Source: an uncultured Acidobacteriota bacterium
GTDB taxonomy: Bacteria > Acidobacteriota > Vicinamibacteria > Vicinamibacterales > JAKQTR01
Assembly: GCA_963809475.1 (NCBI GenBank)
Contig: CAWEJS010000001.1
Location: 410,125-474,124 of the forward strand
Direction of reading: 5' to 3'
DNA: 64,000 nt
The translations under genes and the position numbers were made by a program. Positions 7,772 through 60,367 of the stretch are shown in pieces. The notes under the pieces are model-generated. The model did no database searches, was not told the DNA's origin, and saw nothing but the letters and a program-made list of their open reading frames with translations. The stretch's first letter is position 1; the number at the start of each line of letters is the position of its first letter.

Positions 7772-9636
<1,865 letters not shown>

Positions 9637-15950: not shown

Positions 15951-15994
15951 TCGACCTCCGATCGGTGTGACCGCGCACCGATGGATCTACCGTG

Positions 15995-16295: not shown

Positions 16296-16296
16296 C

Positions 16297-17896: not shown

Positions 17897-18499
<603 letters not shown>

Positions 18500-26529: not shown

Positions 26530-26928
26530 CCGAATGGGGCAGGCGAGATGCTACGATCGGGCAGGCACATCCCCTCAGCTTCGCGTGCCGGGTTTTCCTC
26601 TAGCGGACTTGTAGGGAATTCGGCGCTCCGGGGAGGTGCGTGTGCCGCAGGTGGGGAACGCCGCTCGAGCTGGTGCCGGTCAAGAAAGACTCCCCAGGGC
26701 GCGACCGGCAGACAAAAGCCATCCTTCCCGGCGTCTTTCCGGCCAGCATCTGTGCACTTTCGGGCAGTTTCCGAAGGCCCTCATGGGAGTGGATCTTGCA
26801 AACGTCACGTTGACTTGTGTTAGACGGTCCGGTTGGGGTTTCTCACCCGTAGTCGGGCGGCGCCGTCGCGGGCAAGCGGCGGGGTCGATCTTGGGGAGAG
26901 GCGGCCGGGTTTCTGGAAGGGGGGCGAG

Positions 26929-28214: not shown

Positions 28215-31163
28215 ATGACAACACGAGCGTTGCTGTGGTTGGCCGGTGTTGCGGCCGCCCAGTTGGCCGTGGGCGCGCAACAACCGCAGACCCCGGTCTA
28301 CCGGTCCGGAGTGGACGTCATCGCGGTGGATGTCCACGTGGTCGACCGCGCCGGTCATCCCGTCGTCGGCCTGCGCCCGGACGAGTTCTCCGTCTCGGTC
28401 GACGGCAAGCCGCGGGCGGTGGAATCAGTCGACTTCGTGTCGTACGTGGGGGATTCCAGCCTCGTGGCATCCGACGCCACCAACCTGCGCCCGCTCTTCT
28501 CCACGAACCTGACGCCGACCCGCACGATTCCCCCCCGGACCGTCATGCTCGTCGTGGATGAAGACAACATCCGCGCCGGCGCGGCGCGGTGGGCCGCGAT
28601 CGCCGCGGAGCGCTTCCTCGACCGCGCGCAACCGACCGACCTTATCGGCTTCGTGACGATTCCAGCCGGGAAGACCGGCATCGACCCGACGACGGACCGC
28701 GCCCCGGTGCGAAGCGCGCTGCAGCGCATAATCGGCCACCTGACACCGGCGGACGTATTGGGCACCCATTCCACCCACGCGCTCGCTGTCTCCGAGGCCT
28801 TCGCCTACCTCCACGACCGCGAAAGACCGGACAGCGCGTGGCGCCAGGTGCTGCGCCGCGAGTGCAGTCCAATTGCCTCGCAGATCCTCCTCAAGTGCCC
28901 CGAGGAGATGGCCGGCTACGCGCAGGAGGTGATCGCCGACGTGCGCCAACGTGCAACGGGCACGATTCGGGCGTTGTCCGGGCTCCTCGATGGCCTCGCG
29001 TCAGTGCCGGGACCGAAGACCTTCATCCTCATTTCACAGGAACTGCCCGTATCGGCGTACCCGTCCGAGCAGCATGCCTTCTTCTCCGAGGCTGCCCCGA
29101 TTACGGCCGCCGCGGCCAGAGCGCAGGCAACCGTCTATGTGCTCCACCTTGACGCTCCACTCGTCGATGTGGCGACACAGACGGCGTCGCCGAACGGTCC
29201 CGCCGACGCGGACATGCGTGCCTATGGTCTCGAGACGGTCACGAGCCTGACGGGCGGCCGGCGATGGATGGTGTCCGGCAGCGCCGAGCCGGCGTTCGAG
29301 CGCATCGCGCTGGAGATCTCCGGCTACTACCTGATTGGCCTGCGCGCCGAGCCCGGCGACCGGGACGGCCGGCCCCATGCGATCAAGGTGGAGGTGAAGC
29401 GCCAGGGTGTCGAAGTCCGGGCACGAAAGGCCTTTTCGTTCTCCAGCCCTGCCGGCGAGAGCGCCGCGAAGAACGCGAGCGACGTCGTGAAAGACCTGCT
29501 GCGAACGGCGGACGCCGCGACGGCCCTTCCGATCTCGGTCGCGACCTACACGCTGCCCGCGGCGCCGGACGCCGCTTCGGCCTCAGCGAATCGGGCTCGT
29601 GCTGGCGTGCTGATCACCGCCGAGATCGACCGGGGCCGGACGGCTCCCGCCGACGTCACGGTCGGCTACGCGCTCATCGACGACGCGGGGCGCAATGCCG
29701 GAGCGTCGGTCGAGGCGTTGACGCTCCGTCCCGCAATCGAGCATCCCGATGGGCCGCTCTGCTACCTCGGTGTTGCGCTGGTTCCGCCGGGAGACTACAC
29801 GCTGCGGCTTGCTGCGGCTGACGCCGGCCTGCGATCCGGAAGCGTCGCCCATCGCGTCGCCGCCAGGCCCCTTGAGGCGGGCGGGTATTCCCTGGGCGAC
29901 CTCATCGTCCTCGACCCTCATCGAGCTGAGGCCGATAAGCCTCGCCCGAGCACGACCGGAGTCGTCGCTACGCCGTTCGAGGCCTACTTCGAAGCACGCG
30001 CGTCGGCGGCCGATCTTCCACCGCTGGTTGCGCGCCTCGAGATCGGCAAGAGCCAGGACGCGCCGCCGTTGGTGTCGAGCGAGATGCACGCGCAGCCGTC
30101 AGGCGAGCGGGTTCTCGTGAACGGCATGTTGTCCCTTGCCGGTGTGCCCGAAGGCGATTACCTGGCGCGCGCGGTCGTGTCGGCGGGCGGCGAGGTCCTC
30201 GCACGCCTGGCGCGGCCGGTACGCATCGTGAAAGAAACGGCGGCAAAGCCGCCGGCACCGCGGCTCTCCTCGGCGGTACCGAGCACCGCTGAGCCGCCGG
30301 CGTCGAACGCCGACGAACTCGTCGAACGGGCACGGGGTTGGCTGCTTCGGTATGCAGAGGAGCTGTCCATCGTCATCGGCGTCGAGCGCTACGCGCAGTA
30401 CATGGGCGGCGAGGGGTTCAGCCGTGCCTATGGCCGGCAGTTCGTCTCCGAGTTCGCGCTGGTGCGGACCAAGGACGACTGGCTCGGGTTTCGTGACGTG
30501 TTCGAGATCGACGGCAAGCCCGTCCCCGACCGGCAGGATCGCCTGAGGAGGCTGTTCCTCGACGCCCCGGACTCAGCCGTGGTGCAGGCCCGGAGGATCT
30601 CGGACGAGAGCGCCCGCTACAACCTGGGTGCCATCCAGCGCAACTTCAACGTACCGACGATGGCCCTGTTCTTCCTGCACCCGACCAACGCCGGCCGATT
30701 CCAGTTCCGCAAGGTTGGGGAAGAGAGGATCGACGGTCACCACGTGTGGAAGGTCCGCTACCAGGAAACCCGCGCGCCGACGATCATCAGGACGTCCGCC
30801 GGTAAGGACATGCCGGTCGCGGGCGAGTTCTGGATCGACGCGAACTCGGGGGCAGTGCTCAAGACGCACATGCAGCTCGAGGTCGAAGCGGCCATGGGGG
30901 GGACCAGGGCCCCGAGTTCCCCCTGGGATATGGACAGCGGGACACCCGTCCGGAGGGTGCGAAGTTCAGCGAGCGTGACCGTCACCTACAAGGAAGATGG
31001 GAAGCTCGGTCTGCTGGTCCCGGACAGGATGCTGGAAACCTACGAGGGGCCGTCGGTGAACCGGTTCACCGGGAACGAGGAGATCTCGAAGGTGAACTGC
31101 TCCGCGACGTACTCCGGATTCCGGCGGTTCGAGACTTCCGGCCGTGTGGTCGTGCCCAAGTGA
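28215..31163 (+). CDS. large secreted VWFA-related protein (acidobacterial TIGR03436-like N-terminus) with long uncharacterised C-terminal half
   Basis: Signal peptide, then YRSGVDVIAVDVHVVDRAGHPVVGLRPDEFSVSVDGKPRAVESVDFV (typical TIGR03436 start), then a VWA-like region (VMLVVDEDN...). 982 aa in total. Confidence 0.7.
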   Translation: MTTRALLWLAGVAAAQLAVGAQQPQTPVYRSGVDVIAVDVHVVDRAGHPVVGLRPDEFSVSVDGKPRAVESVDFVSYVGDSSLVASDATNLRPLFSTNLTPTRTIPPRTVMLVVDEDNIRAGAARWAAIAAERFLDRAQPTDLIGFVTIPAGKTGIDPTTDRAPVRSALQRIIGHLTPADVLGTHSTHALAVSEAFAYLHDRERPDSAWRQVLRRECSPIASQILLKCPEEMAGYAQEVIADVRQRATGTIRALSGLLDGLASVPGPKTFILISQELPVSAYPSEQHAFFSEAAPITAAAARAQATVYVLHLDAPLVDVATQTASPNGPADADMRAYGLETVTSLTGGRRWMVSGSAEPAFERIALEISGYYLIGLRAEPGDRDGRPHAIKVEVKRQGVEVRARKAFSFSSPAGESAAKNASDVVKDLLRTADAATALPISVATYTLPAAPDAASASANRARAGVLITAEIDRGRTAPADVTVGYALIDDAGRNAGASVEALTLRPAIEHPDGPLCYLGVALVPPGDYTLRLAAADAGLRSGSVAHRVAARPLEAGGYSLGDLIVLDPHRAEADKPRPSTTGVVATPFEAYFEARASAADLPPLVARLEIGKSQDAPPLVSSEMHAQPSGERVLVNGMLSLAGVPEGDYLARAVVSAGGEVLARLARPVRIVKETAAKPPAPRLSSAVPSTAEPPASNADELVERARGWLLRYAEELSIVIGVERYAQYMGGEGFSRAYGRQFVSEFALVRTKDDWLGFRDVFEIDGKPVPDRQDRLRRLFLDAPDSAVVQARRISDESARYNLGAIQRNFNVPTMALFFLHPTNAGRFQFRKVGEERIDGHHVWKVRYQETRAPTIIRTSAGKDMPVAGEFWIDANSGAVLKTHMQLEVEAAMGGTRAPSSPWDMDSGTPVRRVRSSASVTVTYKEDGKLGLLVPDRMLETYEGPSVNRFTGNEEISKVNCSATYSGFRRFETSGRVVVPK

Positions 31164-31831: not shown

Positions 31832-32368
<537 letters not shown>

Positions 32369-32477: not shown

Positions 32478-32618
32478 ACCCAACTCTGCAAAGCCCGGTA
32501 GGAAGACGCCCAAGCCGTCGAGGATGTCCGCGCAGCGCCTGCGCGGCTTGAGCCGCGCCACGCTGGAACAGGACACCGCCTTCGCGGTCGACCTGACGTG
32601 GAAAGGACTGATGCAGCG

Positions 32619-34082
32619 ATGAGCAACAAGTGGGCGACGGCCTTCGTGGTGGCGTCGGCGCTCGCTCTGTCGGCCGGACCAGCCCTGGGGCAGGGGCCCG
32701 GGGGCGAGCCGCAGTTCCCGCGGGAGGGCGGACAGCCGCTCCCGGGGGCGTCGGCCGGACCGGCCGCCGGGCAGAGCCTCTTCATGGGTGGGGTGCCAAC
32801 CGGCCCCGTGACCGCGGGAGTCCTCCGGTTGTCGCTCGCCGACGCGCTGGCGCGTGGTCTGGAGCACAACCTGGGCGTCATCATCAGCGGGCAGGCCGCC
32901 CGGGCGGCCGAAGGGACCCGCTGGCAGGCTCTCAGCGGCGTGCTGCCGACGGCGTCTCTGCACGTCGGACAATCACGCGCGGAGATCAACCTCGAGGAGT
33001 ACGGCTTTCCGGTCTCGCCCGGGGCGTCGCCCATCATCGGCCCGTTCAACGTGTCGGCGATGCACGTGACGGCATCCGCCCCGGTGTTCGACTACGCGGC
33101 GATCGAGCGGGCGCGGGCCGGCGGGCAGGCCGCCTCGGCGGCGGAGCACTCGTCGAGGGACGCGCGCGACCTGGTCGTGTTCATGGTCGCCAATCTGTAC
33201 CTGCAGACCGCCACCGGGGCGAGCCGGATCGACGCGTCCAAGGCGCAGCTCGCGACGGCGCAGGCGTTGTACAACCGGGCGGTGGACCAGAAGCAGGCCG
33301 GGGTCGTGGCGGGGATCGAGGTGCTGCGGGCGCAGGTGCAGTTGCAGGCGCAGCAGCAACGGGTCATCTTCTACGAGAATGAGTTCGCCAAGCAGAAGCT
33401 CGCGCTGCAGCGCGCCGTCGGCATTCCGCTCGGGCAGCAGGTGGATCTCACCGACCGGGTGGCCTACGCGCCGCTCGCGGGGCTCACCGTCGACGAGTGC
33501 GTCGCGCAGGCGTACGCGTCGCGCGAGGATCTCCAGAGCGCGGCGTCTCTCATCCGCGCGGCCGAGTCGGGCAGGCAGGCGGCGGTTGGCGAGGGGCTGC
33601 CGTCGGCCATGGTGAGCGCCGACTACGGAAGGAGCTCGAGCCGCTGGGACACGCTGCACGGCACGTACTCCGTGGCGGCGGCCGTTCGCGTGCCCCTCTT
33701 CCAAGGCGGCCGCGTGAGGGGCCGGGTCCTGCAGGCCGACGCTCAGATCGCGCAGCAGCGGGCGCAGGCCGACGACCTGAAGGCGCGCATCGAACTCGAA
33801 GTGCGATCGGCGCTGCTCGACGTGGGGGCCGCCGACCAGCGCGTGCAGGTGGCCCGCAGCGCCGCGGATCTCGCCGGCCAGCAGCTGACGCAGGCGCAGG
33901 ACAGGTTCTCCGCCGGGGTGAGCAGCAACATCGAGGTGGTCCAGGCGCAGGAATCGGTGGCGACAGCGACTGACAACTACCTGGCGGCGCTCTATGCGCA
34001 CAACTTCGCGAAGATCTCGCTGGCCCGGGCCGTCGGCCAGTCCGCCGAGCGCGTCCAGCCGTATCTGGGAGGCACGAGGTAA
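32619..34082 (+). CDS. TolC-family outer-membrane efflux protein
   Basis: Signal peptide and two OEP repeats (LSLADALARGLEHNL..., ...YLAALYAHNFAKISLARAVG). Confidence 0.85.
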   Translation: MSNKWATAFVVASALALSAGPALGQGPGGEPQFPREGGQPLPGASAGPAAGQSLFMGGVPTGPVTAGVLRLSLADALARGLEHNLGVIISGQAARAAEGTRWQALSGVLPTASLHVGQSRAEINLEEYGFPVSPGASPIIGPFNVSAMHVTASAPVFDYAAIERARAGGQAASAAEHSSRDARDLVVFMVANLYLQTATGASRIDASKAQLATAQALYNRAVDQKQAGVVAGIEVLRAQVQLQAQQQRVIFYENEFAKQKLALQRAVGIPLGQQVDLTDRVAYAPLAGLTVDECVAQAYASREDLQSAASLIRAAESGRQAAVGEGLPSAMVSADYGRSSSRWDTLHGTYSVAAAVRVPLFQGGRVRGRVLQADAQIAQQRAQADDLKARIELEVRSALLDVGAADQRVQVARSAADLAGQQLTQAQDRFSAGVSSNIEVVQAQESVATATDNYLAALYAHNFAKISLARAVGQSAERVQPYLGGTR

Positions 34083-35392
34083 TGGCGAGCACACTCGACG
34101 CAGATCGTCAGACTCCCGCCGTCGAACCCCCGGGCGCGGCGCCCTCGACGTCGCGTGCCGGATCCGGTGGGCGACGTCGTCTCATGGCCGACCGCCCCAA
34201 CGCCAGACGCGCCCTCATCGCGGCCGGCGTCGTGGCCGTCGTCGGGATCCTGGGGGCGTGGTGGCATTTCGCCGGGCAGGAATCGACCGACGACGCGCAG
34301 GTGGACGGGCACATCGTACCGATCGCGGCGCGCGTCGGCGGCACGGTGCAAGCGGTGAAGGTGGAGGACAACCAGGTCGTCGACGCCGGCGCCGTCCTCG
34401 TCGAAATCGACCCGAAGGACTACCGCATCGCGCTGGCGCGGGCCGAGGCCGACTACGCGGACGCGCAGGCGGCGCTCGCCGCCGCACAGGCCGGGGTGCC
34501 GATCACCACGACGACCACGGCCAGCCAGATGAGCGCCGCGACGGCCAACGTCGGCCGCGCCAACGCGGGGCTGACGGCGAGCGATCGGGACATCGACGCC
34601 GCGCGGGCGCGGCTCGCGGCCGCCGGGGCGCGCCTCAAGGAGGCGACGGCGAACGCCACCCGCACCTCCCGCGACCTCGAGCGCATGAAGCAGTTGATCG
34701 CCAAGGACGAGATTTCCCAGCAGCAATACGACGCCGCTGAGGCCGCGTCCGACGCGGCCAGGGCGACGGTCGAATCGGCACAGGCCGCGGTGACCGAGGC
34801 GACACAGGGCATCGCGGTCGCCGAGAGCCGGCGCGTCCAGGCCGCCGGCGCGCTGGAACAGACGCAAGCCGATCTCCGTTCCGCGCGCACGGCCCCCGAG
34901 CAGGTGGCCGTGACGAAGGCGCGGGCGCAGTCCGCAGCGGCCCGCGTGCAGCAGGCGAAGGCCGCTCTCGACATGGCTCGGCTCAACCTCGAGTACACGA
35001 CGGTCAAAGCGCCGTCGGCCGGCCGTGTGAGCAAGAAGAGCGTCGAGCCGGGGCAGGTGACGCAGCCGGGCCAGCCGCTGCTCGCGATCGTGCCGGTCGA
35101 GGACGTCTGGATCACGGCGAATTTCAAGGAAACCCAACTGCACCGCGTGCGCCAGGGACAGCCGGTCTCGGTGTCCGTCGATGCCTTCGGCCGCTCGTTC
35201 ACTGGCCGCGTCGAGAGCGTCGCCGCGGCGACCGGCGCGCGGTTCAGCCTGTTGCCGCCCGAGAACGCCAGCGGCAACTATGTGAAGGTCGTCCAGCGGA
35301 TCCCGGTCAAGATCGTGCTCGACCGCGGGCAGGACCCGGAGCACCTGCTGCGTCTCGGCATGTCGGTCGTGCCGACGGTCTACACGAGGTAG
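34082..35392 (+). CDS. HlyD/EmrA-family membrane fusion protein
   Basis: TAATG overlap with the tolC-like gene. N-terminal TM segment, TDDAQVDGHIVPIAARVGG, long coiled coil, beta-barrel (GMSVVPTV). Confidence 0.85.
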   Translation: MASTLDADRQTPAVEPPGAAPSTSRAGSGGRRRLMADRPNARRALIAAGVVAVVGILGAWWHFAGQESTDDAQVDGHIVPIAARVGGTVQAVKVEDNQVVDAGAVLVEIDPKDYRIALARAEADYADAQAALAAAQAGVPITTTTTASQMSAATANVGRANAGLTASDRDIDAARARLAAAGARLKEATANATRTSRDLERMKQLIAKDEISQQQYDAAEAASDAARATVESAQAAVTEATQGIAVAESRRVQAAGALEQTQADLRSARTAPEQVAVTKARAQSAAARVQQAKAALDMARLNLEYTTVKAPSAGRVSKKSVEPGQVTQPGQPLLAIVPVEDVWITANFKETQLHRVRQGQPVSVSVDAFGRSFTGRVESVAAATGARFSLLPPENASGNYVKVVQRIPVKIVLDRGQDPEHLLRLGMSVVPTVYTR

Positions 35393-35459
35393 TCCCATCG
35401 AACAGACGCTTGCGGCTCGCTCGGGCGGCCAGCCTCACCCCTGGCGCATCGCGATCTCG

Positions 35460-36974
35460 GTGGTGTTCGGCACGTTCATGGTCGTGCTCGACACGACGGT
35501 GGTGAACGTCTCGCTGCCGCACATCGCGGGCAGCCTGTCGGCCAGCATCGAGGAATCGACGTGGGCGCTCACCATGTACCTGGCCGCCAACGCGATCATC
35601 CTCCCGATCACGGGATGGCTGGCGAACCAGTTCGGCCGGCGCCGCCTGCTGCTGCTCTCGGTGGCCGGCTTCACGGTCGCCTCGCTCATGTGCGGGCTGT
35701 CGTTCTCCCTGCCGTTCCTGGTGGTCTGGCGCGTCATCCAGGGCGCGACGGGCGGTGTGATGCAGCCGCTGTCGCAGGCGATCATGCTCGAAGCCTTCGA
35801 GCCGCGCGAGCGCGGGAAGGCGATGGCGCTGTTCGGGATCGTGGTCGTCGTGGCGCCAATCATGGGGCCGGTCGTCGGCGGGTGGCTGACCGACAGCTAC
35901 TCGTGGCGGTGGGTGTTCTACATCAACCTCCCGATCGGCGTCCTCGCCTTCATGATGCTGCGCCGGAACATCTTCGATCCGCCATATATCCGGCGGGGGA
36001 CGGCGGGCATCGACTACTGGGGGATCGGGCTGCTGGCCGTCGGCATCGCCGCGCTGCAGATCGGCCTCGACCAGGGTCAGCAGAAGGACTGGTTCGAGTC
36101 GTCGCTGATCACGACGCTGCTCGCGCTAGCCGCGATCGCGCTCGTCGCGTTCCTCGTGCACGCCCTGCGCTCGAAGGCGCCGGTCGTGAATCTCAGGCTG
36201 TTCCGCGACCGGACCTACGCCGCCGGCGTCGCGCTGATTACCGCGCAGAGCGTCGGGCTCTACGGCAGCCTCGTCCTGATGCCGGTGCTGCTCCAGACCC
36301 TCATGGGCTACCCCGCACTCGAGGCCGGCTACGCGATGGCGCCCCGCGGGCTCGGTTCGCTCGTCGTCACCCCGATCGCGGGCCTGCTGGTGAACCGGGT
36401 GGATCCCAGGCGCCTGCTCGCCGTGGGATTCGTCGCGAGCGCGTTCTCGCTGTACTGGATGTCGTGGCTGAATCTCCAGGCCGGCTTCTGGGACGTGTTC
36501 TGGCCCCAGTTCCTCCAGGGCGCGGGCATGGGGCTGTTGTTCGTCCCGCTGACGACGGTCGCCATGGATCGGATCAGCCTGAAGGACATGGGGCAGGCCA
36601 CCAGCATCTTCAATCTGCTCCGGAACATCGGAGGAGCGGTGGGCATCGCGATGGTGCAGACCGTGCTGGCGCGGGATCGCCAGGAGCACTTCAACGTGCT
36701 CGGCGCGCACGTCCAGCCGTACGGCTTCGCGACACAGACGATGTTCGCGAACCTGAAGGCGACATTCATCGCGCGCGGATCGGACGTGACCACCGCGACC
36801 AGCCAGGCCTACGCTGCCCTCTTCGGCATAGTTCAGAAACAGGCGGCCATGGTCGCGTTCCTCGACACGTTCAGGCTCCTGGCGGTCGTGTTCCTGCTGA
36901 TGCTGCCGCTCCTGTTCCTCATGAAGAAGCCGCGGCACCAAGACGAGCCGACGATCGTGGTCGCTGAGTCGTGA
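35460..36974 (+). CDS. MFS DHA2-family (EmrB/QacA) efflux transporter
   Basis: FMVVLDTTVVNVSLPHIAG and LANQFGRRRLLL motifs, 14-TM-like length. In-frame similarity (HPWRIAIS) extends upstream of the GTG at 35460 without a canonical start, so the 5' end is uncertain. Confidence 0.8.
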   Translation: MVFGTFMVVLDTTVVNVSLPHIAGSLSASIEESTWALTMYLAANAIILPITGWLANQFGRRRLLLLSVAGFTVASLMCGLSFSLPFLVVWRVIQGATGGVMQPLSQAIMLEAFEPRERGKAMALFGIVVVVAPIMGPVVGGWLTDSYSWRWVFYINLPIGVLAFMMLRRNIFDPPYIRRGTAGIDYWGIGLLAVGIAALQIGLDQGQQKDWFESSLITTLLALAAIALVAFLVHALRSKAPVVNLRLFRDRTYAAGVALITAQSVGLYGSLVLMPVLLQTLMGYPALEAGYAMAPRGLGSLVVTPIAGLLVNRVDPRRLLAVGFVASAFSLYWMSWLNLQAGFWDVFWPQFLQGAGMGLLFVPLTTVAMDRISLKDMGQATSIFNLLRNIGGAVGIAMVQTVLARDRQEHFNVLGAHVQPYGFATQTMFANLKATFIARGSDVTTATSQAYAALFGIVQKQAAMVAFLDTFRLLAVVFLLMLPLLFLMKKPRHQDEPTIVVAES

Positions 36975-36990
36975 CGGGCTGAGGTGGCCC

Positions 36991-38085
36991 TCACCTGAAC
37001 AGCGCGGCTTCGACGGCCAGGCCAGGGCCGAACGCGAGCGCCAGGCACGGTCTCGGGGCGCCGCGCCGCCGGAGGCGTTCGAGGATGAACAGGATCGTTG
37101 GCGACGACATGTTGCCGAACTCCCCGAGCACCTCCTGCGACACCGCATAGTCCTCGCGGGTGATGCCCGTGGTCTGCGCAACGGACTCGAGGATACGCGG
37201 CCCCCCGGGGTGCACGGCCCAGGATGCGATGCGGTCCACGGACAGGCCGTTGTGCGCGAGCCAGCTGTCGAGCCACGGCCGCAGTTCGCGTTCGATCACG
37301 CCCGGCACTCGGGCCGACAACGACATCTCGAACCCGTGATTGCCGATCCGCCACGTCATCAGCTCGGCAGAATCCGTGAGCAGGGACGACCCGCTCCGGG
37401 CGAGCTCCCAGGCATCGCCTGACGCGGGCTTTCGTCCGCCCCCGACCAGTGCGGCCGCGCCGTCCGCGAAGATCGCGTTCGACACGATCCAGTCGCCGTG
37501 CCAGCCGTACTGGTAGTGGAGGCTGCAGAGTTCGACCGCGCAGACGAGCACACACGCGTCCGGATCGCTGCCGGCGTAGGCGCCCGCCACCCGCAGCCCG
37601 TTCAGCGCGCCGTGGCACCCCATGAATCCCACGTGCGTGCGGGCCACGGTCACCGGCAGCCCGAGATCCCCCACGAGCCGCATGTCGAAATTCGGCGCGG
37701 CAAATCCGGTACAGGACACCGTGACCAGGTGGGTCACGGTGAGCGGCGACACGCCGGCGTCCTCCAGCGCGGCTCTAGCCGCTCGCACGCCGAGGCCCGG
37801 CGCGTGGGTCTCGTACTGCGCCATGCGCTCGGCCGTGGATGGTCCGCAATCACCGGCGTCGCGCACGGGCGGGAAGAACGAATGACGGACGGTGCCGGGC
37901 TCGTCGCCCTCGTCGAGCACGACGCTGTGGCGCTTCTTCACCCGCGTCAGGCGGTAGATGGCCTTCAGCTGACGCTGCTGCTCGTCGGACGAGCCGCCAT
38001 ACTGCCGCGCGACCTCGACGGCCTGCTCCTGCGAGATCGCGTGCGGCGGCGAGGCGACGCCGATGCCGTACACATAGAGGGCCAT
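36991..38085 (-). CDS. type III polyketide synthase (chalcone synthase superfamily)
   Basis: The start is set at ATG 38085 (MALYVYGIG). Catalytic Cys (VSCTGFAAP), His (WAVHPGGPRIL) and Asn (FGNMSSPTILF). Confidence 0.9.
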   Translation of the reverse strand: MALYVYGIGVASPPHAISQEQAVEVARQYGGSSDEQQRQLKAIYRLTRVKKRHSVVLDEGDEPGTVRHSFFPPVRDAGDCGPSTAERMAQYETHAPGLGVRAARAALEDAGVSPLTVTHLVTVSCTGFAAPNFDMRLVGDLGLPVTVARTHVGFMGCHGALNGLRVAGAYAGSDPDACVLVCAVELCSLHYQYGWHGDWIVSNAIFADGAAALVGGGRKPASGDAWELARSGSSLLTDSAELMTWRIGNHGFEMSLSARVPGVIERELRPWLDSWLAHNGLSVDRIASWAVHPGGPRILESVAQTTGITREDYAVSQEVLGEFGNMSSPTILFILERLRRRGAPRPCLALAFGPGLAVEAALFR

Positions 38086-39287
38086 TACACGGTCCTTCCG
38101 ATCGCGCCGGGATGGCGCGGCGCCAGATGAGCCAGAACGGGCCTGGCGAGGCCCGGGTGTCGCCGAAGCAACAGGACGAGGGGCGTGACGATCGCGGGCA
38201 TCCTGAGCACACGCGCCACCACGCGGCACCACCGCTGCTCGCGGCGGATGCCGCCGGCGTACGCGCCGATCCACTCGCGCTCGAGCCGGCGCTCGTGGGA
38301 CTGCGTGGCCCGTATCACGAACGGCACCACGGCTTCCGCCCCGGCAAACGCCCACGCCATCCCCTCGCCGGTGAACGGCTCGACGTACCCGGCTGCATCA
38401 CCGATGACGAAGATCCCGCGCGCGGCCGGGCGGGACAGACCACGGGTCAGCGGGATCGTGCCCATCCATTCGACCTCATCCAGACCGGATCCGGTGCTCT
38501 GTCCGGCTTCCGCGAGGAGGACCCCGATCGCACGGGAAGCGGTGGCGTGGGCCTTGAGAAAGCCCGGATCGATGGCCGCCGCAATGTTCACGCGTCCGCC
38601 CTCGACCTCCACGGCACCGACGTAACCGTGCCGGCCGATGGCCATCGTGATCGACCCGGGGACGATCTCGACCGCGCCGCGTTCGGCCTCGCCACCCACG
38701 CCCACGCGCGCCGTCGGGGACACGCGGCCGTGAAAGGACGTGCACTCCCGCAGGGAACTGCGGGAAAGCCCGTCGGCCACGAGGACCGCCTTGCCTTCAG
38801 CGGACGCGCCCGGCCCGTGGGGCTGCTGCAGCAAGACGCGCCGCCAGCCCTCCCGCCACGGCTGGTTGCTCTCAGCCACGACCACTGCCGTCGTCCCAGG
38901 CAGGAATGCGCAACCGGCCTCAACCGCCGCTGACACCAGCTCCGCATCGAAGGCGCGCCGCGACACGGCCAACCCCGGCGCGATCTCGATCGCCACGCTC
39001 CGGCCGCGCTGGCGCAGATGAAGCACGTGGACGGGCGCGGCACCAAGGCCTCGAACCCGCTCGACGAGGCCGGCACGGGCGAGGGCCGCGATCGCCTGCG
39101 TGTTCAGGCATCCGCCGCATACCTTCGGACGCGGAAAGCGCCTGCGCTCGACCAGGAGGACCCGGAGCCGTGCGCGCGCCAGGAGACACGCGGACAAGGC
39201 GCCGGCGGGGCCGGCGCCGATGACAATCGCATCCCACGGCTGGAGTGCCGCGCGCGCGGCATCGATGGTCGGGGCGATGTCCGTCAT
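38085..39287 (-). CDS. FAD-dependent oxidoreductase/hydroxylase (geranylgeranyl-reductase-like fold)
   Basis: DAIVIGAGPAG dinucleotide motif, CGGCL, and a C-terminal GDAAGYVEPFTGEG. 1-nt overlap (TAATG) with the PKS start. Confidence 0.8.
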   Translation of the reverse strand: MTDIAPTIDAARAALQPWDAIVIGAGPAGALSACLLARARLRVLLVERRRFPRPKVCGGCLNTQAIAALARAGLVERVRGLGAAPVHVLHLRQRGRSVAIEIAPGLAVSRRAFDAELVSAAVEAGCAFLPGTTAVVVAESNQPWREGWRRVLLQQPHGPGASAEGKAVLVADGLSRSSLRECTSFHGRVSPTARVGVGGEAERGAVEIVPGSITMAIGRHGYVGAVEVEGGRVNIAAAIDPGFLKAHATASRAIGVLLAEAGQSTGSGLDEVEWMGTIPLTRGLSRPAARGIFVIGDAAGYVEPFTGEGMAWAFAGAEAVVPFVIRATQSHERRLEREWIGAYAGGIRREQRWCRVVARVLRMPAIVTPLVLLLRRHPGLARPVLAHLAPRHPGAIGRTV

Positions 39288-39311
39288 ACACGGGACTCCA
39301 TGCCCGATCCG

Positions 39312-40004
39312 TCACACCGGTCTTCGCCAGACCAGCAGCCATCGCTGCGGCCAGACCTCGTCGACTTCAGCGCCCGACAGGCACGCGCGCCGGGCCAGGG
39401 CGCGCGCCTCGCGGCTTGTGAGCGCGGCCGCAACCGAGCGCGCCCCGTCCACCCGGAACACGCGCGAACGGGACAGCAGGCGGCAGCCAACCCACGTGTA
39501 GAGACGGCCCAAAGGCGTCCGGCGCAGATCGGACACGACGACCGCGCGCGCCGCCGCGTCCCGCATGCGGCCCAGGAGGGCCACCGCGTCCGCGTCGGTC
39601 ACGTGGTGCAGGAACAGCGTGGAGACGACGACGTCCACGCCGGCGGGCATCGGGTCGCGCAACGCGTCGGCCCGCTCGAACCACACCCCTTTGACGCGTG
39701 ACCGATCGGCCAGGGTGCTCGCGTAGTCAACGGCGACGCGGCTCGTGTCCCAGCCGGTCCACTCGACATCGACCCCCTCGGCGGCGGCGCGCCGGGCCAG
39801 AGCCACGAGGACGTGGCCTCCGCCGCAGGCGACATCGAGGACGCGCAGTCGGCGTCCCGCGGCGTCGCGCGCCGCTTCCCGTATGACTGGCCAGATGGCG
39901 GCGGCCGTGCGGCTGACCGAATTGGCCAGACCCAGCGCGTCGAGCGCGCGGACGTGCTGCCGGACATCCAGGCCGGGCTGGTCCATCATCTCCGGCACGA
40001 TCAC
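39312..40004 (-). CDS. class I SAM-dependent methyltransferase
   Basis: Motif I (VLDVACGGGH) and the post-I acidic residue, 230 aa. Confidence 0.8.
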   Translation of the reverse strand: MIVPEMMDQPGLDVRQHVRALDALGLANSVSRTAAAIWPVIREAARDAAGRRLRVLDVACGGGHVLVALARRAAAEGVDVEWTGWDTSRVAVDYASTLADRSRVKGVWFERADALRDPMPAGVDVVVSTLFLHHVTDADAVALLGRMRDAAARAVVVSDLRRTPLGRLYTWVGCRLLSRSRVFRVDGARSVAAALTSREARALARRACLSGAEVDEVWPQRWLLVWRRPV

Positions 40005-40045
40005 GCGGGGGCTGCGGATCAGGAGCGTTCCTCCTCAGCTACGGA

Positions 40046-41443
40046 CTACTCGCTCAAGCCCGCGAGACGGTACTTGGCGAGGTAATGGCTCAAGGCGCGC
40101 TGGCTGATCCCCATGAGTTCGGCGGCGTCCTTCTTGACTCCGCCGGCCGCGTCGAGGGCCCGCCGGATGGTCTCGCGCTCGACCCACTCGAGGTTCTGAT
40201 GCAGGCGCATCGACGGCACTCCGGGCACGGCGGCCGGCGTGGCGCGCAGCCCCGAGATCGCGTCAGCCCCGAGAACCTCGTCGTGCGACAGGACGACCGC
40301 GCGTTCAATGGTGTTCTCGAGCTCGCGCGCGTTGCCCGGCCAGTCATACCGCTCGAGGATCGCCATCGCCGACTCGTGCAGGCGCTGCGCGGGCCTCCCG
40401 ATGCGATGCGCGTGCTTGCGGAGAAAGTGCACCGCAAGGACGGCGATATCCTCCCGGCGTTCACGAAGCGGGGGGATCCGGATCGGGATGACGTTGAGGC
40501 GGTAGAAGAGGTCCTCCTGGAAGCTCCCGTCGGCGACCATCTGCACGAGATCGCGGTTCGTCGCGGCGATGACGCGGACGTCGACCTTCTCGGCCCGTTC
40601 CGATCCCAGCGGCTCGAACTCGCGCTCCTGCAGCACGCGAAGGAGCTTCGCCTGGAGCGGCTGGCCCAGCATCGCGATCTCGTCGAGGAGGATCGACCCG
40701 CCGTGGGCGAGCGCGAACTTGCCCTTCTTGTTGGCCGTGGCCCCGGTGAAGGCGCCGCGCACGTGCCCGAACAGCTCCGACTCGAGCAGCGTCTCCGGGA
40801 TGGCCGCGCAGTTCACCTTGATGAGCGGCATCTCGCGCTGGGCGCTGCGATCGTGGATGGCCCGCGCGACGAGCTCCTTGCCCGTGCCGGTCTCGCCGGT
40901 GATGAGGACGGTGCTCTTCGTTTCCGCCACGCGCTCGAGCGTCCGGATGACGTCCTGGATGGCGCGGCTGCCGCCGACGATGCCGTAGTGGCCGAACTCC
41001 TCGTCGCGCTCGCTCAGCAGGTAGCGGTGCTGGTTGCGCAGGCGCTGAAGGTCGATCGCGCGGCGCACCACGACCAGCAATTCGTCGATCTCGAACGGCT
41101 TCTGGAGGTAGTCGAGCGCCCCGAGTTTCATGGCCTCGATGGCGCTGTCGACCGTGGCGTGCGCGGTCATCAGCACGATCTGGGGCCGCTCGCCGGACGG
41201 CGTATGCTGGACGAGGTCGCGGATGAGATCCAGCCCGGTGAGGTCGGGCATGATGTTGTCGACGACCGCGACGTCGAAGACCTGCTCGGTGAGGAGGCGC
41301 TGCGCCGCCCGGCCGCTGGACGTCTCCACGACGTCGTGGCCCTCTTCCCGCAGCGCGCGGCCCAGTGCCCGCAGGATGCGTTCCTCGTCGTCCGCAACCA
41401 GGATGCTCCCGGTGGCCAACCTGTCGTCCGTTCGCGATGTCAT
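40046..41443 (-). CDS. sigma54-dependent response regulator (NtrC family)
   Basis: The start is set at ATG 41443 (MTSRTDD...). REC domain (ILVADDE...D...K), AAA+ Walker A (GETGTGKE), the sigma54-contact GAFTGA motif, and a C-terminal Fis-type HTH. The track ORF of 859 aa is an artefactual upstream extension. Confidence 0.9.
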   Translation of the reverse strand: MTSRTDDRLATGSILVADDEERILRALGRALREEGHDVVETSSGRAAQRLLTEQVFDVAVVDNIMPDLTGLDLIRDLVQHTPSGERPQIVLMTAHATVDSAIEAMKLGALDYLQKPFEIDELLVVVRRAIDLQRLRNQHRYLLSERDEEFGHYGIVGGSRAIQDVIRTLERVAETKSTVLITGETGTGKELVARAIHDRSAQREMPLIKVNCAAIPETLLESELFGHVRGAFTGATANKKGKFALAHGGSILLDEIAMLGQPLQAKLLRVLQEREFEPLGSERAEKVDVRVIAATNRDLVQMVADGSFQEDLFYRLNVIPIRIPPLRERREDIAVLAVHFLRKHAHRIGRPAQRLHESAMAILERYDWPGNARELENTIERAVVLSHDEVLGADAISGLRATPAAVPGVPSMRLHQNLEWVERETIRRALDAAGGVKKDAAELMGISQRALSHYLAKYRLAGLSE

Positions 41444-43263
41444 GAGGTCCCCTCGCCCGCTCTGCCGGGCGGCGGTGCGGCCGGCAGCTCGATGCGCACG
41501 TTCGTGCCGGAGGGCGTCCCGCTGGCGATGGCGATGACACCACCGAGGCTCTCGATGATGTTCCGCGAGATCGCCAGGCCGAGTCCCGTCCCGCCCCGGC
41601 GCGTGGTGAAGAACGGCTCGAACAGCCGCGCCGCGACGGCAGGATCGACGCCGGGGCCGTCGTCGTGAACGACGACGACGGCCCCGCCCTGCTCGCGCGC
41701 GACGGCGCGGATCTCGATTCGCGCGTGCCCGGGTTCGGCGCCGTCCGCCGCGCTCCCCGGGACGGCGCGAACCGCCTGGGCGGCATTCTGCAGGATGTTG
41801 ACCAGGACGGTGCGCACGCGCTCGGGGTCGGTGCGAATCGCAGGAAGCCCGGGCGCAGGGACGACGCCGATGGCCACGCCTCCGTCTGCGGCCTGGACGG
41901 CCTGCGCCGCCTCCTGACAGAGGGCGTTGACGTCGGCGTCCCGCCACGTGAACGTGATGGGCTTCGCATAATCGAGCACTTCGCTGACGATCCGGTTGAG
42001 GCGGATCACCTCCTGGTCGATGTCCTGGATCGCCTCCGCGCGGACGTCCGGCCCGGCGTCGGCCTGGCGCAGCGTCCGCGTCGCCGACTTGATGATCATC
42101 AGCGGGTTGCGAATCTCGTGGGCGATCACGCTCGACAGGCGGCCCAGCGAGGACAGGCGCTCGCGCTGGGCGGCTTCCTTCTCGAAGCCCGCGATGGAAT
42201 CGGTGAGCGTGTTGAACGTCGACGCCAGCAGACGCGCGTCCTCGTCGTCCCAGGACCCCGGCTGCACCGGGATCTTGCGGGTGAGGTCGCCGGTCGCAGC
42301 CACGTCGCGCATGACGTCGGTGATGGAGGCCAGGGGCCGCGTGACCGTTCTTGCGACGGCATAACTCAGCACCGTCGCGAGGAGGATCGTGGCGAGGGCC
42401 GCGGCGCCAATCACGGTCTGGATGTGGCCCACGAACCGCAGCTGTTCGCTCCTCGAGCGGACGACCATGACGAAGGGCGAGCCCTCGACCGCAACGGGAT
42501 CGCGCCCTCCCGCCCGGGCACCCGGAGCCCTCATGAATGGTGCCGACAGGAGCACGTAGTCGTCCTCTCCCGCCGACACCCGGGCCATGCGCCCCGGCAC
42601 GCCCGCAGCGTCGAAGGCCGCCCACGTGGGCCGCTGGAGCGTGGACGCCCGGGTTCGGCCGTCAAGGCCGAAGGACACGTCGCTGCCCGTCAACTGCTTG
42701 AAGTCGGCCGCGACCGCCCCGTCGAGCAGGAACCCGACGCTGAGGGTGCCGGCGATGCCCGCAGGATCGCCCCCGATCGTGATCGGCACGCTCAGCACCT
42801 GGAGGAGGCCGTCCGGGTGGGCCCGGAAGGACGAGGCCGTCGTGCCGCGCAACGCGGCTCGAATTGACGGTAGCGTGGACGAGACCCCCGGGTCCAGGAC
42901 GAGGGGGCCGGCCATCGCCAGCACGCGGGCGTCACGATCGGTGACCACCACCAGGCTCGATCGAGCGAGCATCTGCTGGTAATCGGCCGCCAGCGGCTGG
43001 ACCGTGGGCGGATCGCCGGTCGCGACGGCGGCCTTGAGCTTCGGCAGGTCGGCGATCAACCGGGCAAGCATCGAGATGGTCTCGACCAGCGCTTCCCCCT
43101 GGCGCCCGACGACGGCGCCCGACTCCACGAGCCCGCGCTGGAGGTCCGACTCGGCCTGCGCGGTGACGCGCGAGCTCACGAAGAACGCCGTGAACCCCGT
43201 GGCGAGCACGACGAGCAGCGCCGCCGCGAGGAAGATCCGGTTCGTGAGCGATGCCAGCAGCAT
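41440..43263 (-). CDS. sensor histidine kinase (TM - periplasmic domain - TM - HAMP - HisKA - HATPase)
   Basis: H-box (VIAHEIRNPL), N box, and G boxes (DDGPGV, GGTGLGLAIS). 4-nt overlap with the regulator gene. Start at 43263 (MLLASLTNRIF) by alignment with the paralog; 43293 is also possible. Confidence 0.85.
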   Translation of the reverse strand: MLLASLTNRIFLAAALLVVLATGFTAFFVSSRVTAQAESDLQRGLVESGAVVGRQGEALVETISMLARLIADLPKLKAAVATGDPPTVQPLAADYQQMLARSSLVVVTDRDARVLAMAGPLVLDPGVSSTLPSIRAALRGTTASSFRAHPDGLLQVLSVPITIGGDPAGIAGTLSVGFLLDGAVAADFKQLTGSDVSFGLDGRTRASTLQRPTWAAFDAAGVPGRMARVSAGEDDYVLLSAPFMRAPGARAGGRDPVAVEGSPFVMVVRSRSEQLRFVGHIQTVIGAAALATILLATVLSYAVARTVTRPLASITDVMRDVAATGDLTRKIPVQPGSWDDEDARLLASTFNTLTDSIAGFEKEAAQRERLSSLGRLSSVIAHEIRNPLMIIKSATRTLRQADAGPDVRAEAIQDIDQEVIRLNRIVSEVLDYAKPITFTWRDADVNALCQEAAQAVQAADGGVAIGVVPAPGLPAIRTDPERVRTVLVNILQNAAQAVRAVPGSAADGAEPGHARIEIRAVAREQGGAVVVVHDDGPGVDPAVAARLFEPFFTTRRGGTGLGLAISRNIIESLGGVIAIASGTPSGTNVRIELPAAPPPGRAGEGTS

Positions 43264-43400
43264 GGTCGCGGTTCTCACCGGATGCCACACCATCTGTCGA
43301 CTACGCCGTCGTCCGGCACGGCCACGATGCGCGTCTCGCGGACCGCGCCTTCATGCCACACGGCGAGGGTGTACAGACCCCGGCGGGACGCCGGCCCGGG
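42191..43400 (-). repeat. segmental duplication, copy B (relic of the upstream gene's 3' end plus the sensor/HAMP module of the kinase)
   Basis: Collinear nucleotide and protein similarity to 44520..45735 with an offset of about 2330 bp. Similarity stops right after the HAMP segment (...STFNTLTDSIA). Confidence 0.8.
43275..43400 (-). pseudogene. relic copy of the last ~41 codons of the cupredoxin-like gene (no start codon)
   Basis: Translates to PGPASRRGLYTLAVWHEGAVRETRIVAVPDDGVVDRWCGIR*, compared with PPGSYTLAVWYEGEVRERRTVVVPDDGVVESAFVIR* at the end of 45607..46296. It begins 2 nt after the PP2C gene stop. Confidence 0.7.
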
Positions 43401-46301: not shown

Positions 46302-47528
46302 TCAGAACCAGAGGAGCGCCTGGACGGCCGCCAGGCGACTTCGGCGGACGCCGCCGCCGTCGCGCCAGTTGTCCATGACGGAGGCCTTCACGAGCAGGCC
46401 CCGCCTGATTGTGTATCCCACGCCAAGCTCGACTCGGGACACATTCGCGTCCCACGTGCGGAAGCCGGCAGAGCCGCGAAGGGCCGAGAAGGTCATGCGA
46501 TCACCCCGGGCCGCGACGTAGAAACCCGGGCGCAGGCGTACCTTGGTTTCGAGATACCAGGCCCGGGATCCGAGCGGGTCGATGATGCGCGGCTCGTCCA
46601 GGGCCGGCAGCGCCCACGAACTCGCCACGAACTCGCCGCGAAGCAGCCAGCGGCCCCACGACGTCTCGGCATCGATCCCGACGGCTTGCTGATTGTAGGG
46701 CCGGTCCGGAATGCCGGGACGCGCTGCGCGGACCACGTCACTGACGAACGCGCCCCGAGCGGCGGACACGCCGATGGCGAACGCGGGAACGGGCCGCCAG
46801 CCCAGGTGGCCGGCCACCTGGCCGCCTCCGTTGTCGTTCTTCACCAGCGGGGACGACAGCGATCCCACGGTCAGCGCCACCGCGCCTTCCAGCGTCGGCC
46901 GCCCCACGCGAACCTCGATTCCTGTGTCCCACCGGCCAGCCGCAATCATCGGCACGCCGGCTCCCGCGTACGCATCGCCCACCGGGTAGGAAGCCCGCCA
47001 TCCCCGGCCGCGCATCCGCAGCAGGTCGTCGGCCGTCGCCGGCACGGCGTCCGGGCGCAGCGACGTCAGGTACTGGTACCCGAGCGGATCGCCGATGAGC
47101 GGATTGTCTTGCGGATAGCTTCGCCGCGCGTATGTTCCGAACACGGGCGGGATCCGCCCGGCCTGGATGTCAACGAGGCCGCTGTCAAACGGTGTCAGGC
47201 GCATGTACCACGCATACGGCCTGACGCCGGTTCCTGTTTCGGCCCGGATCTCCGTCAGGAAGGTCAATCGCCGCGACACGCGGAGCTCGACGGTCAGGCC
47301 GGCGCGGATCCGTCGAAGCGCACTGGTCTCATAGTCCGTGTACGTGAACCAGCCCGGGTCATCGCTGCCATAGGTCGCCGACGCGTCGCCTGCCAGAAGG
47401 AGGCGGCCGCCGGCAAGGGCTACCGGCTCGCTCGGCCAATGCTGAGCGTCAGCCAGGGGTGGCTGGAGTGGCCCGACGCAGGCAACGAACGTTGCAACGG
47501 CGATCCGCCGCGAGATACTCGCACACAT
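46302..47528 (-). CDS. putative outer-membrane beta-barrel protein
   Basis: The start is set at ATG 47528 with a signal-like peptide (MCASISRRIAVATFVACVG...ADAQ). Alternating beta-strand pattern, Gly/aromatic-rich, C-terminal ...ALLWF. The rest of the 729-aa track ORF is discarded. Confidence 0.5.
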   Translation of the reverse strand: MCASISRRIAVATFVACVGPLQPPLADAQHWPSEPVALAGGRLLLAGDASATYGSDDPGWFTYTDYETSALRRIRAGLTVELRVSRRLTFLTEIRAETGTGVRPYAWYMRLTPFDSGLVDIQAGRIPPVFGTYARRSYPQDNPLIGDPLGYQYLTSLRPDAVPATADDLLRMRGRGWRASYPVGDAYAGAGVPMIAAGRWDTGIEVRVGRPTLEGAVALTVGSLSSPLVKNDNGGGQVAGHLGWRPVPAFAIGVSAARGAFVSDVVRAARPGIPDRPYNQQAVGIDAETSWGRWLLRGEFVASSWALPALDEPRIIDPLGSRAWYLETKVRLRPGFYVAARGDRMTFSALRGSAGFRTWDANVSRVELGVGYTIRRGLLVKASVMDNWRDGGGVRRSRLAAVQALLWF

Positions 47529-47605
47529 TCTTGAGTGCCGACTCCATTCTATGCACATTCGCTGCCCGGCCGGAGAGCGGTTCGGGCACGGTGCCCGCCC
47601 GCCGG

Positions 47606-60362: not shown

Positions 60363-60367
60363 GGACC

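Follow-up and report, generated by a model that had tools for sequence, protein, structure and literature searches.

A three-gene operon of the hidABC type, predicted to make a tailored alkylresorcinol, in a Vicinamibacterales-like acidobacterium

In the analysed window, a stretch of 64,000 nucleotides from an uncultured acidobacterium, a cassette of three intact genes has been identified on the minus strand, spanning positions 36991-40004 (Table 1). The open reading frames are exactly those first described in a sequence-only reading of the window. The enzyme classes proposed there, i.e. a SAM methyltransferase, an FAD-dependent oxidoreductase and a type III polyketide synthase (PKS) with an intact Cys-His-Asn triad, have been confirmed through Pfam and NCBIfam domains and alignments, and the tight packing noted there is borne out by the coordinates. 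The methyltransferase stop and the start of the FAD gene are 24 nt apart, and the TAA stop of the FAD gene has one base in common with the ATG of the PKS gene (gtgTAATGgcc; 1-nt TAATG overlap), which suggests that the flavoprotein and the PKS are translationally coupled. For the methyltransferase, which opens with GTG, alternative ATG start codons are present at 39989 and 39986. All three proteins aligned full-length to their relatives, with best homologues at E-values of 1e-237 (PKS) and 1e-224 (FAD protein), and the cassette is therefore not a chance pattern of open reading frames in a genome of 69% GC. Neither a sigma-70 promoter nor an intrinsic terminator was found in a scan of positions 36500-40600.

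Table 1. Genes of the cassette and active-site codons of the PKS, in window positions
Feature	Position	Strand	Remark
HidA-like class I SAM-dependent methyltransferase (MT)	39312..40004	-	230 aa from GTG 40004
HidB-like FAD-dependent oxidoreductase, geranylgeranyl-reductase superfamily	38085..39287	-	400 aa
HidC-like type III polyketide synthase (PKS), predicted alkylresorcinol synthase	36991..38085	-	364 aa
PKS catalytic Cys125	37713-37711	-	
PKS Trp245	37353-37351	-	
PKS catalytic His292	37212-37210	-	
PKS catalytic Asn325	37113-37111	-	

The PKS carries the Pfam domains Chal_sti_synt_N and Chal_sti_synt_C, and its triad Cys125-His292-Asn325 is invariant across the homologue alignments. Trp245 is invariant in the Gimesia and Synechococcus homologues, in which Met254, located in a "GFEMSLS" motif, is near-invariant. 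In an ungapped alignment, Trp245 falls on ArsC residue 284 and Met254 on ArsC Met293. The former position is that of ArsB Trp281, which switches the product from pyrone to resorcinol (PMC6274091), and both residues match the configuration of resorcinol-forming ArsB and of ArsC-G284W. According to PMC8086630, a methionine at the CHS-Phe265 position is characteristic of the HidC clade, and the window PKS shows this trait together with the triad.

The placement of the PKS rests on identities to homologues of named genera and on bit scores against PDB references. The PKS shares 52-57% identity with homologues from Gimesia, Planctomyces and Synechococcus, the hid-like ones with E-values of about 1e-117 to 1e-138. 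Scores of 150-166 bits were obtained against PKS18, PKS11, Ectocarpus PKS1 and Steely1, versus 112 bits against THNS/RppA (1u0m) and 112 bits against ArsC; among solved relatives, the best matches are type III PKSs that act on long-chain acyl substrates. These scores rule out a non-lipid PKS of the RppA/THNS type, the outcome named in the sequence-only reading as contrary to its assignment, and the long-chain alkylresorcinol type of phenolic lipid assigned there holds. Of the solved structures, the two nearest to it, PKS18 and PKS11, act as pyrone synthases in vitro, and PKS11 of M. tuberculosis, named a pyrone synthase, carries Trp too at the position equivalent to 245, so that Trp245 is supportive but not decisive. 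Nevertheless, alkylpyrones (triketide or tetraketide lactones) are a very improbable product, since the enzyme is far closer to a clade whose tested members make alkylresorcinols, and Trp245 and Met254 taken together fit the resorcinol-forming enzymes.

A total of 84 related loci have been analyzed, of which 67 had enough upstream DNA for gene order to be counted. The order methyltransferase, FAD gene and PKS on one strand was found in 62 of these 67, from Acidobacteriota, Planctomycetota, Gemmatimonadota, Hydrogenedentota, Elusimicrobia and Synechococcus (six phyla); methyltransferase homologues immediately upstream of the FAD gene (62/67) are 39-70% identical to the window protein. Among the loci with this order are three from Acidobacteriota in which the flanking genes are wholly different, and one acidobacterial locus (L001) has the same 1-nt overlaps. 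Compared to the window proteins (tblastn, near full length), the identity is 52-53% for the PKS, 43-45% for the methyltransferase and 42% for the FAD protein in Gimesia spp. (L013, L020, L042), and 52-53%, 42-47% and 40-42%, respectively, in Synechococcus (L068, L082).

Judged by gene order and protein identity, the nearest counterparts among known systems are the hidABC (hierridin) operon of picocyanobacteria and the planctomycetal mtr-fdo-t3pks operon. The former was described in Cyanobium sp. LEGE 06113 (Costa et al. 2019; summarised in PMC6836626 and PMC8086630). The cassette shares with it (i) a set of three genes that follow one another on one strand as methyltransferase, FAD oxidoreductase and type III PKS (PMC8086630); (ii) the Met corresponding to CHS-Phe265 and the conserved Trp; (iii) an identity of 40-57% over the three proteins, a comparison in which Synechococcus and Gimesia homologues of the same genera stood in for the HidABC and G. 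maris proteins. The cassette differs in its host, an acidobacterium with a heterotrophic life in soil or fresh water. The planctomycetal operon, known from Gimesia maris and Rhodopirellula baltica (Milke et al. 2024, PMC10896814), has an identical gene order, and the window PKS is 52-57% identical to those of Gimesia, Planctomyces and other Planctomycetota; it differs in belonging to another phylum. Of 96 planctomycetal type III PKS genes, 58 stand at the end of such an operon, and the PKSs tested from this group make C15/C17 alkylresorcinols (pentadecyl- and heptadecylresorcinol) in C. glutamicum (PMC10896814). The cyanobacterial and planctomycetal operon proteins are 48-55% identical to each other.

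The cassette thus has the features of a hidABC-type operon, namely a co-directional methyltransferase and FAD oxidoreductase with the PKS last and homology of all three proteins, and represents an unremarkable example of an operon type, known and widespread, for long-chain phenolic lipids. A literature search for operons of this type in Acidobacteria or Vicinamibacteria found nothing specific.

The methyltransferase is a soluble class I Rossmann protein with the Pfam domains Methyltransf_25/31/12/11. Its score against the PRK06202-like NCBIfam profile is 174 bits, under the cutoff of 243, and the domain search revealed no ICMT/PEMT domain in this protein. Recombinant HidA methylates 5-pentadecylresorcinol (PMC6836626, PMC8086630) and is described as methylating the two phenolic hydroxyls; the G. 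maris methyltransferase appears to C-methylate (PMC10896814). The sequence of the window enzyme is compatible with either O- or C-methylation.

The second enzyme had been named an FAD hydroxylase. It is confirmed as an FAD protein, but the hydroxylase role is only inferred: the protein is closest to the geranylgeranyl reductase (GGR) family, and no modification was detectable when the homologous G. maris flavoprotein (Fdo) was co-expressed (PMC10896814). It possesses a FAD_binding_3 domain (Pfam), a GxGxxG sequence at residues 24-29, an invariant Cys57 (codon 39119-39117) and a GDAAGYVEPFTGEG motif. The best full-length PDB match of its profile is the Thermoplasma GGR 3oz2 (E 7e-16), and in this alignment Cys57 falls on the Cys of the GGR "RCGEG" motif. 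The 3oz2 stretch "GYIWVFPKGEG", which corresponds to the YxWxFP motif of GGRs and to the site of the halogenase WxWxIP motif, reads G-Y-V-G-A-V-E-V-E-G-G in the window protein. The score against TIGR02032 (GG-red-SF) is 118.3 bits, under the curated cutoff of 158.8. A bona fide GGR is ruled out by this score and by the loss of YxWxFP, with the Cys of CGG kept; on profile and motif evidence the protein is a member of the GGR superfamily only.

The AF2 model of the flavoprotein (pLDDT 86, pTM 0.89) matched flavin halogenases, aromatic hydroxylases and GGR in Foldseek at TM 0.6-0.75, with epoxidases also among the neighbours, and with classes so mixed at similar scores the reaction is not assignable by structure. 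The top neighbours are flavin-dependent halogenases; these matches and the unexplained chlorination of hierridin C had prompted the idea of a halogenase. The likeness is at the level of the fold only, and a halogenase was rejected on motifs (WxWxIP, GES and the conserved Lys are absent). Where halogenases have "FPR..IGES" the window protein has "FPRPKVCGG", with CGG in place of GES, and no Lys after CGG is found in the list of invariant residues of the homologues. It is in this stretch that the halogenase catalytic Lys would be expected.

These results also bear on two roles that the flavoprotein might have in place of ring hydroxylation: that of a GGR/MenJ-like reductase, with a double bond or a quinone as its target, or that of a halogenase. 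The Thermoplasma GGR match with its aligned Cys57, the automatic naming of some homologues as menaquinone-9 beta-reductase, the halogenases at the top of the Foldseek matches, the silent G. maris Fdo and the chlorination of hierridin C, for which the enzyme is not known (PMC6836626), are consistent with such a role. It is, however, considered improbable, as the substrate motifs of both families are replaced and hierridin B requires one extra ring hydroxyl for which HidB is the sole candidate in the hid cluster (PMC6836626). GGR-like folds acting as aromatic hydroxylases also exist, as in QhpG, LodB and GoxB, all three of which are among the NCBIfam matches of the window protein (QhpG weakly).

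The sequence-only reading had taken srsABC of Streptomyces griseus, and more distantly the ars genes of Azotobacter, as the nearest systems, which is not borne out in view of the gene order and the 40-57% identity, measured through homologues of the same genera, shared with the hid and planctomycetal operons. Its statement that the enzyme set is that of srsABC is correct as a functional analogy: srsABC, like pkqABC of Mycobacterium smegmatis, relies on a type III PKS to supply an alkylresorcinol, which subsequently undergoes methylation and modification by a flavoprotein. Orthology does not follow. The annotation of an srsB homologue, whose operon shares 51-63% identity with S. griseus srs, places it in the isoprenylcysteine carboxyl methyltransferase (ICMT) family (PMC6669644). 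With the type of SrsB taken from this annotation, the two methyltransferases are, by family assignment, analogous and not homologous, because the window enzyme is of the class I Rossmann type. In srs and pkq, moreover, the PKS gene comes first, followed by the methyltransferase and the oxidoreductase, whereas in the window it is last; an operon of this type has been rejected on both gene order and methyltransferase family. The gene order is indeed different from srs, as had been remarked, but it is no peculiarity, since hidABC and the planctomycetal operons share it exactly and it is the standard order of this other, described operon type.

The end product of srs and pkq is a benzoquinone, and the cassette could be their functional equivalent, with a redox-active alkyl-methoxy-benzoquinone serving as an alternative membrane electron carrier or envelope-protective lipid and not a hierridin-like phenol. 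The three enzyme functions are the same, auto-oxidation can turn a hydroxylated methoxy-resorcinol into a quinone, srs alkylquinones provide resistance to beta-lactams, and polyketide quinones function in electron transfer as carriers. This is nonetheless judged rather unlikely: besides the order and the methyltransferase family, all three window proteins have their nearest relatives, by a wide margin, in the hid and planctomycetal operons, and planctomycetal mutants and heterologous producers suggested (PMC10896814) a natural function unlike that of other alkylresorcinol producers.

The Azotobacter relation is likewise not supported. The arsABCD system of A. vinelandii resembles the cassette in a type III PKS primed with long chains and in the Trp245 equivalent of ArsB Trp281. 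It is defined, in contrast to the single PKS of the window, by two PKSs (ArsB/ArsC) and the dedicated fatty acid synthase ArsA, and lacks a methyltransferase or flavoprotein. The system also includes ArsD, ArsA and ArsD being type I fatty acid synthases. No genes for a fatty acid synthase, ACP or acyl-ligase/acyl-activating enzyme were found among the window ORFs scanned. A cyst-lipid cluster of the ars type was rejected on the single PKS, the lack of a fatty acid synthase in these ORFs and the efflux and two-component flanks.

As had been noted, the PKS stop (36991) lies 16 nt from the stop of a convergent EmrB gene (36974), in a set that encodes EmrB (TIGR00711, 460 bits, above the cutoff), an EmrA/HlyD adaptor and an OEP/TolC protein. 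On the other side, the stop of the response regulator of a sigma-54 two-component system is 42 nt from the methyltransferase start. This proximity, and transporter genes near an srs-like cluster in Marisediminicola (PMC6669644), could be read as one unit of production, export and possibly regulation. The position of the efflux set is confirmed, but the adjacency is not conserved: homologues of EmrB, EmrA, TolC and the sigma-54 response regulator were found within ~8-10 kb of the PKS in none of the 84 related loci (tblastn, E <= 1e-10), and three close acidobacterial relatives have entirely different flanks (e.g. PGM/PMM genes, DinB, EamA). Nor was a sigma-54 promoter (TGGCAC-N5-TTGC, <=2 mismatches) found upstream of the methyltransferase gene; the window holds 44 matches versus 56 expected by chance, and the only two in the cassette are inside the PKS and FAD coding regions. 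A single unit is therefore highly unlikely. Owing to their absence from all 84 related loci, the efflux set and the two-component system look incidental neighbours, and neither is part of the unit.

Taken together, the locus is very probably a self-contained hidABC-type operon of three genes, predicted to make a tailored long-chain 5-alkylresorcinol, a phenolic lipid. By homology, from which all steps are inferred, the PKS would draw a fatty acyl thioester of long chain length (about C14-C18) from the pool of the cell itself, bind the chain at Cys125 and extend it by three malonyl-CoA units via His292 and Asn325. The tetraketide would then be folded against the steric wall of Trp245 and Met254, leading to C2-C7 aldol condensation and decarboxylation and yielding a 5-alkylresorcinol, probably pentadecyl- or heptadecylresorcinol. 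The class I methyltransferase would methylate the ring, either at oxygen, as HidA, or at carbon, as the G. maris enzyme appears to, and the flavoprotein of the GGR superfamily may hydroxylate the ring, as has been proposed for HidB. The end product would be a hierridin-like methoxy-alkylphenol or hydroquinone, with oxidation to a quinone as a possible further step.

In the flavoprotein, Cys57 of the reductase type is retained but the substrate motifs of both GGRs and halogenases are lost, which makes an undescribed alkylresorcinol chemistry conceivable. There is a slight chance that the flavoprotein performs such chemistry, with the cassette perhaps recruited under the sigma-54 system and EmrAB-TolC export, resulting in a secreted or outer-membrane phenolic lipid for signalling or defence.

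The locus would be labelled a T3PKS cluster by tools of the antiSMASH type and is in this sense no surprise. It extends the known alkylresorcinol operon of picocyanobacteria and Planctomycetota to Acidobacteriota of the Vicinamibacterales type, and the related loci show that Gemmatimonadota, Hydrogenedentota and other groups commonly carry the operon as well. The finding supports tailored alkylresorcinols as a widespread class of bacterial membrane or envelope lipids.

The three minus-strand genes at window positions 36991-40004, encoding a methyltransferase, an FAD flavoprotein and a type III polyketide synthase (PKS), make up an alkylresorcinol (phenolic lipid) operon of the hidABC type, carried by a Vicinamibacterales-like acidobacterium. 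At the outset, long spurious ORFs are frequent in the window because its GC content is about 69%; despite this, the three genes are genuine. The genes and enzyme classes proposed in the sequence-only reading are borne out by the ORFs and their domain matches, and so is the spacing; (i) a 24-nt gap separates the methyltransferase and flavoprotein genes; (ii) the flavoprotein and PKS genes share one base in the junction 'TAATG'. The catalytic triad, read as intact, comprises Cys125, His292 and Asn325, invariant in two alignments. The closest NCBIfam family of the methyltransferase is PRK06202, with a score under the cutoff.

Features of the window, in order of position
Feature	Position	Strand	Remarks
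DnaK/Hsp70	7768-9636	+	PF00012, E 9e-198
Periplasmic binding protein	10856-11878	-	uptake cluster
FecCD permease	11854-12858	-	uptake cluster
ABC ATPase	12851-14125	-	uptake cluster
TonB-dependent receptor	13680-15950	-	uptake cluster; CarboxypepD_reg
PEP-CTERM-anchored protein	26833-27594	+	
TadA-like deaminase	31868-32368	+	MafB19/dCMP_cyt_deam; adjoins TolC gene upstream
TolC-like OEP	32598-34082	+	OEP/TolC match
EmrA/HlyD adaptor	34082-35392	+	precedes EmrB
EmrB-type DHA2 MFS pump	35460-36974	+	TIGR00711, 460 bits
Type III PKS, 364 aa	36991-38085	-	Chal_sti_synt_N and _C
FAD flavoprotein, 400 aa	38085-39287	-	FAD_binding_3; TIGR02032 geranylgeranyl-reductase superfamily
Class I SAM-methyltransferase, 230 aa	39312-40004	-	Methyltransf_25/31/12/11
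NtrC-type sigma-54 response regulator	40046-41443	-	4-nt overlap with kinase stop
Histidine kinase	41440-43293	-	HAMP/HisKA/HATPase
Signalling protein, 735 aa	43403-45610	-	HAMP, PAS, SpoIIE/PP2C phosphatase; upstream of two-component system
PGM/PMM phosphohexomutase	59007-60614	-	about 19 kb from cassette

The cassette had been likened to srsABC, in a different gene order. This likeness holds for the enzyme classes and the lipid type, but not for the closest relative, which by order and identities is the picocyanobacterial hierridin operon hidABC with its planctomycetal equivalent, mtr-fdo-t3pks. The "different" order is not distinctive, being the canonical arrangement of this already described operon. 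Among planctomycetal type III PKS genes, 58 of 96 sit last in a methyltransferase-oxidoreductase-PKS operon, and in C. glutamicum the PKSs tested yielded pentadecyl- and heptadecylresorcinol (PMC10896814). The window PKS, methyltransferase and flavoprotein are 52-53%, 43-45% and 42% identical to those of Gimesia spp., and 52-53%, 42-47% and 40-42% to those of Synechococcus (tblastn), about the same range as the 48-55% between planctomycetal and cyanobacterial sets (PMC10896814). In the pkq and srs alkylquinone operons the PKS is placed first, whereas in the window it is last. The ars system, also named as related, has two PKSs and the dedicated fatty acid synthase ArsA, along with ArsD, in contrast to the single PKS of the window; among the parts of the window that were scanned, none held an ars-like second PKS or fatty acid synthase. 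The class I fold of the window methyltransferase also sets it apart from an srsB homologue, which lies in an operon with 51-63% identity to S. griseus srs and is annotated as isoprenylcysteine carboxyl methyltransferase-family (PMC6669644), a different fold. No paper on a hidABC-type operon in Acidobacteria was found in the searchable literature.

Among solved structures, the PKS best matches the long-chain-acyl enzymes Ectocarpus PKS1 (166 bits), 7cb3, PKS18, PKS11 and Steely1, and reaches only 112 bits against THNS/RppA and against ArsC. Since the long-chain-acyl enzymes outscore THNS/RppA, the PKS is not RppA-like, an affinity that would have spoken against the proposed phenolic lipid. A 46-residue segment around Trp245 aligns to ArsC without gaps, Trp245 falling on the sole position that distinguishes wild-type ArsC (Gly284, 3vs8) from the resorcinol-producing G284W (3vs9), and Met254 on ArsC Met293. 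The equivalent residue of ArsB, Trp281, is the steric wall for aldol cyclisation (review PMC6274091), and methionine at the CHS-Phe265 position is a HidC-clade trait (PMC8086630). Trp245 is unchanged throughout the aligned homologues from Gimesia, Synechococcus, Hydrogenedentota and Gemmatimonadota, and Met254 is almost invariant. Trp245 would favour a resorcinol product, as support short of proof, because PKS11 also has Trp at the equivalent position.

The flavoprotein is the least certain part of the operon. Its homologues are automatically annotated as flavin-dependent dehydrogenase, FAD-dependent monooxygenase or menaquinone-9 beta-reductase, and its own match to TIGR02032 (118 bits) lies under the NCBIfam cutoff of 158.8. 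The confident AF2 model (pLDDT 86, pTM 0.89) matches, with similar scores, the flavin-dependent halogenases FasV, Bmp2, PltA and CndH, the aromatic hydroxylases 3HB6H, PqsL and PnpA, squalene epoxidase and the Thermoplasma geranylgeranyl reductase (GGR). With the family profile, GGR 3oz2 is the best match across the full length, and Cys57 aligns to the Cys of the GGR 'RCGEG' motif. The protein lacks the GES motif of halogenases, and no invariant Lys stands where their catalytic Lys would be expected. Where GGR carries YxWxFP and halogenases WxWxIP, it has G-Y-V-G-A-V-E. GGR-like proteins can act as aromatic hydroxylases, as weak NCBIfam matches to QhpG, LodB and GoxB indicate. For HidB, the hydroxylase role was grounded on the hierridin B structure and the lack of another hid candidate (PMC6836626); on this ground we infer by analogy a ring hydroxylase, since the matches and motifs point to no single reaction. 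Co-expression of the G. maris genes led to detection of methylation alone, probably on carbon, and did not reveal the role of the flavoprotein (PMC10896814).

Elsewhere in the window, the ORF antisense to dnaK (7588-9837, -) matches PF10712, 'NAD-specific glutamate dehydrogenase' (E 1e-122), which looks like the known artefact of this family matching antisense dnaK in high-GC genomes. The iron or cobalamin-type uptake cluster (10856-15950, -) coincides with the region at 12-16 kb where GC (0.73) and AT skew peak. ORFs of 616-982 aa at 28215-31163 (+), 46302-48491 (-), 16210-18060 (+) and 13461-16019 (+) have no Pfam match; the last, antisense to the TonB-dependent receptor gene, is probably spurious, and the first (982 aa) may encode a real uncharacterised protein.

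Relatives were scanned in one genome per GTDB species, and the best 80 of at least 592 found, along with four other loci (84 in total), were compared by tblastn with the window proteins. The complete efflux set (32598-36974, +) is convergent with the PKS gene, the PKS and EmrB stops lying 16 nt apart as first described, but a link to the cassette finds no support; homologues of the window EmrB, EmrA, TolC and sigma-54 response regulator were within reach in none of the 84 loci (tblastn). The adjacency of EmrAB-TolC thus looks incidental. Immediately upstream, and in the same orientation as the cassette, is the two-component system, with 42 nt from regulator stop to methyltransferase start; its transcription may read through into the cassette. 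Scans around the cassette turned up no consensus for a sigma-54 promoter, a sigma-70 promoter or a terminator. The two-component neighbourhood is not conserved, either in three acidobacterial contigs or in the 84 loci (tblastn).

The closest PKS homologues, up to 97% identical, are metagenomic, the named ones being Acidobacteria or Vicinamibacterales MAGs. The three acidobacterial contigs, with PKS homologues at 68-75% identity, carry methyltransferase, flavoprotein and PKS in unchanged order, one of them (L001) also having the 1-nt overlaps, and their flanks (PGM/PMM genes, DinB, EamA, FGE-sulfatase) are wholly unlike the window. Two PGM/PMM genes stand directly upstream of the methyltransferase gene in the acidobacterial loci L001 (5246-8107) and L002 (4448-7192); compared with the distant PGM/PMM gene of the window, this suggests rearrangement of an ancestral operon neighbourhood. 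Of the 67 loci with 2.1 kb or more of DNA upstream of the PKS gene, 62 have the three genes co-linear on a single strand (tblastn). These loci represent Acidobacteriota, Gemmatimonadota, Hydrogenedentota, one Elusimicrobia MAG, Planctomycetota (Gimesia, Planctomyces, Isosphaerales, Gemmatales, Pirellulales) and picocyanobacteria (Synechococcus, Prochlorococcaceae). One locus (L054) has methyltransferase and PKS with the flavoprotein missing, much as in Stieleria maiorica, for which a two-gene operon is reported; in L072 the flavoprotein is present and no methyltransferase is detectable; in L060, L066, L073 and L079 (Singulisphaera, Gemmataceae and Planctomycetota MAGs) the PKS stands alone. 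Because the gene order is kept, the flanks differ and no efflux or regulator gene is linked, the methyltransferase-flavoprotein-PKS trio is a self-contained, horizontally mobile operon.
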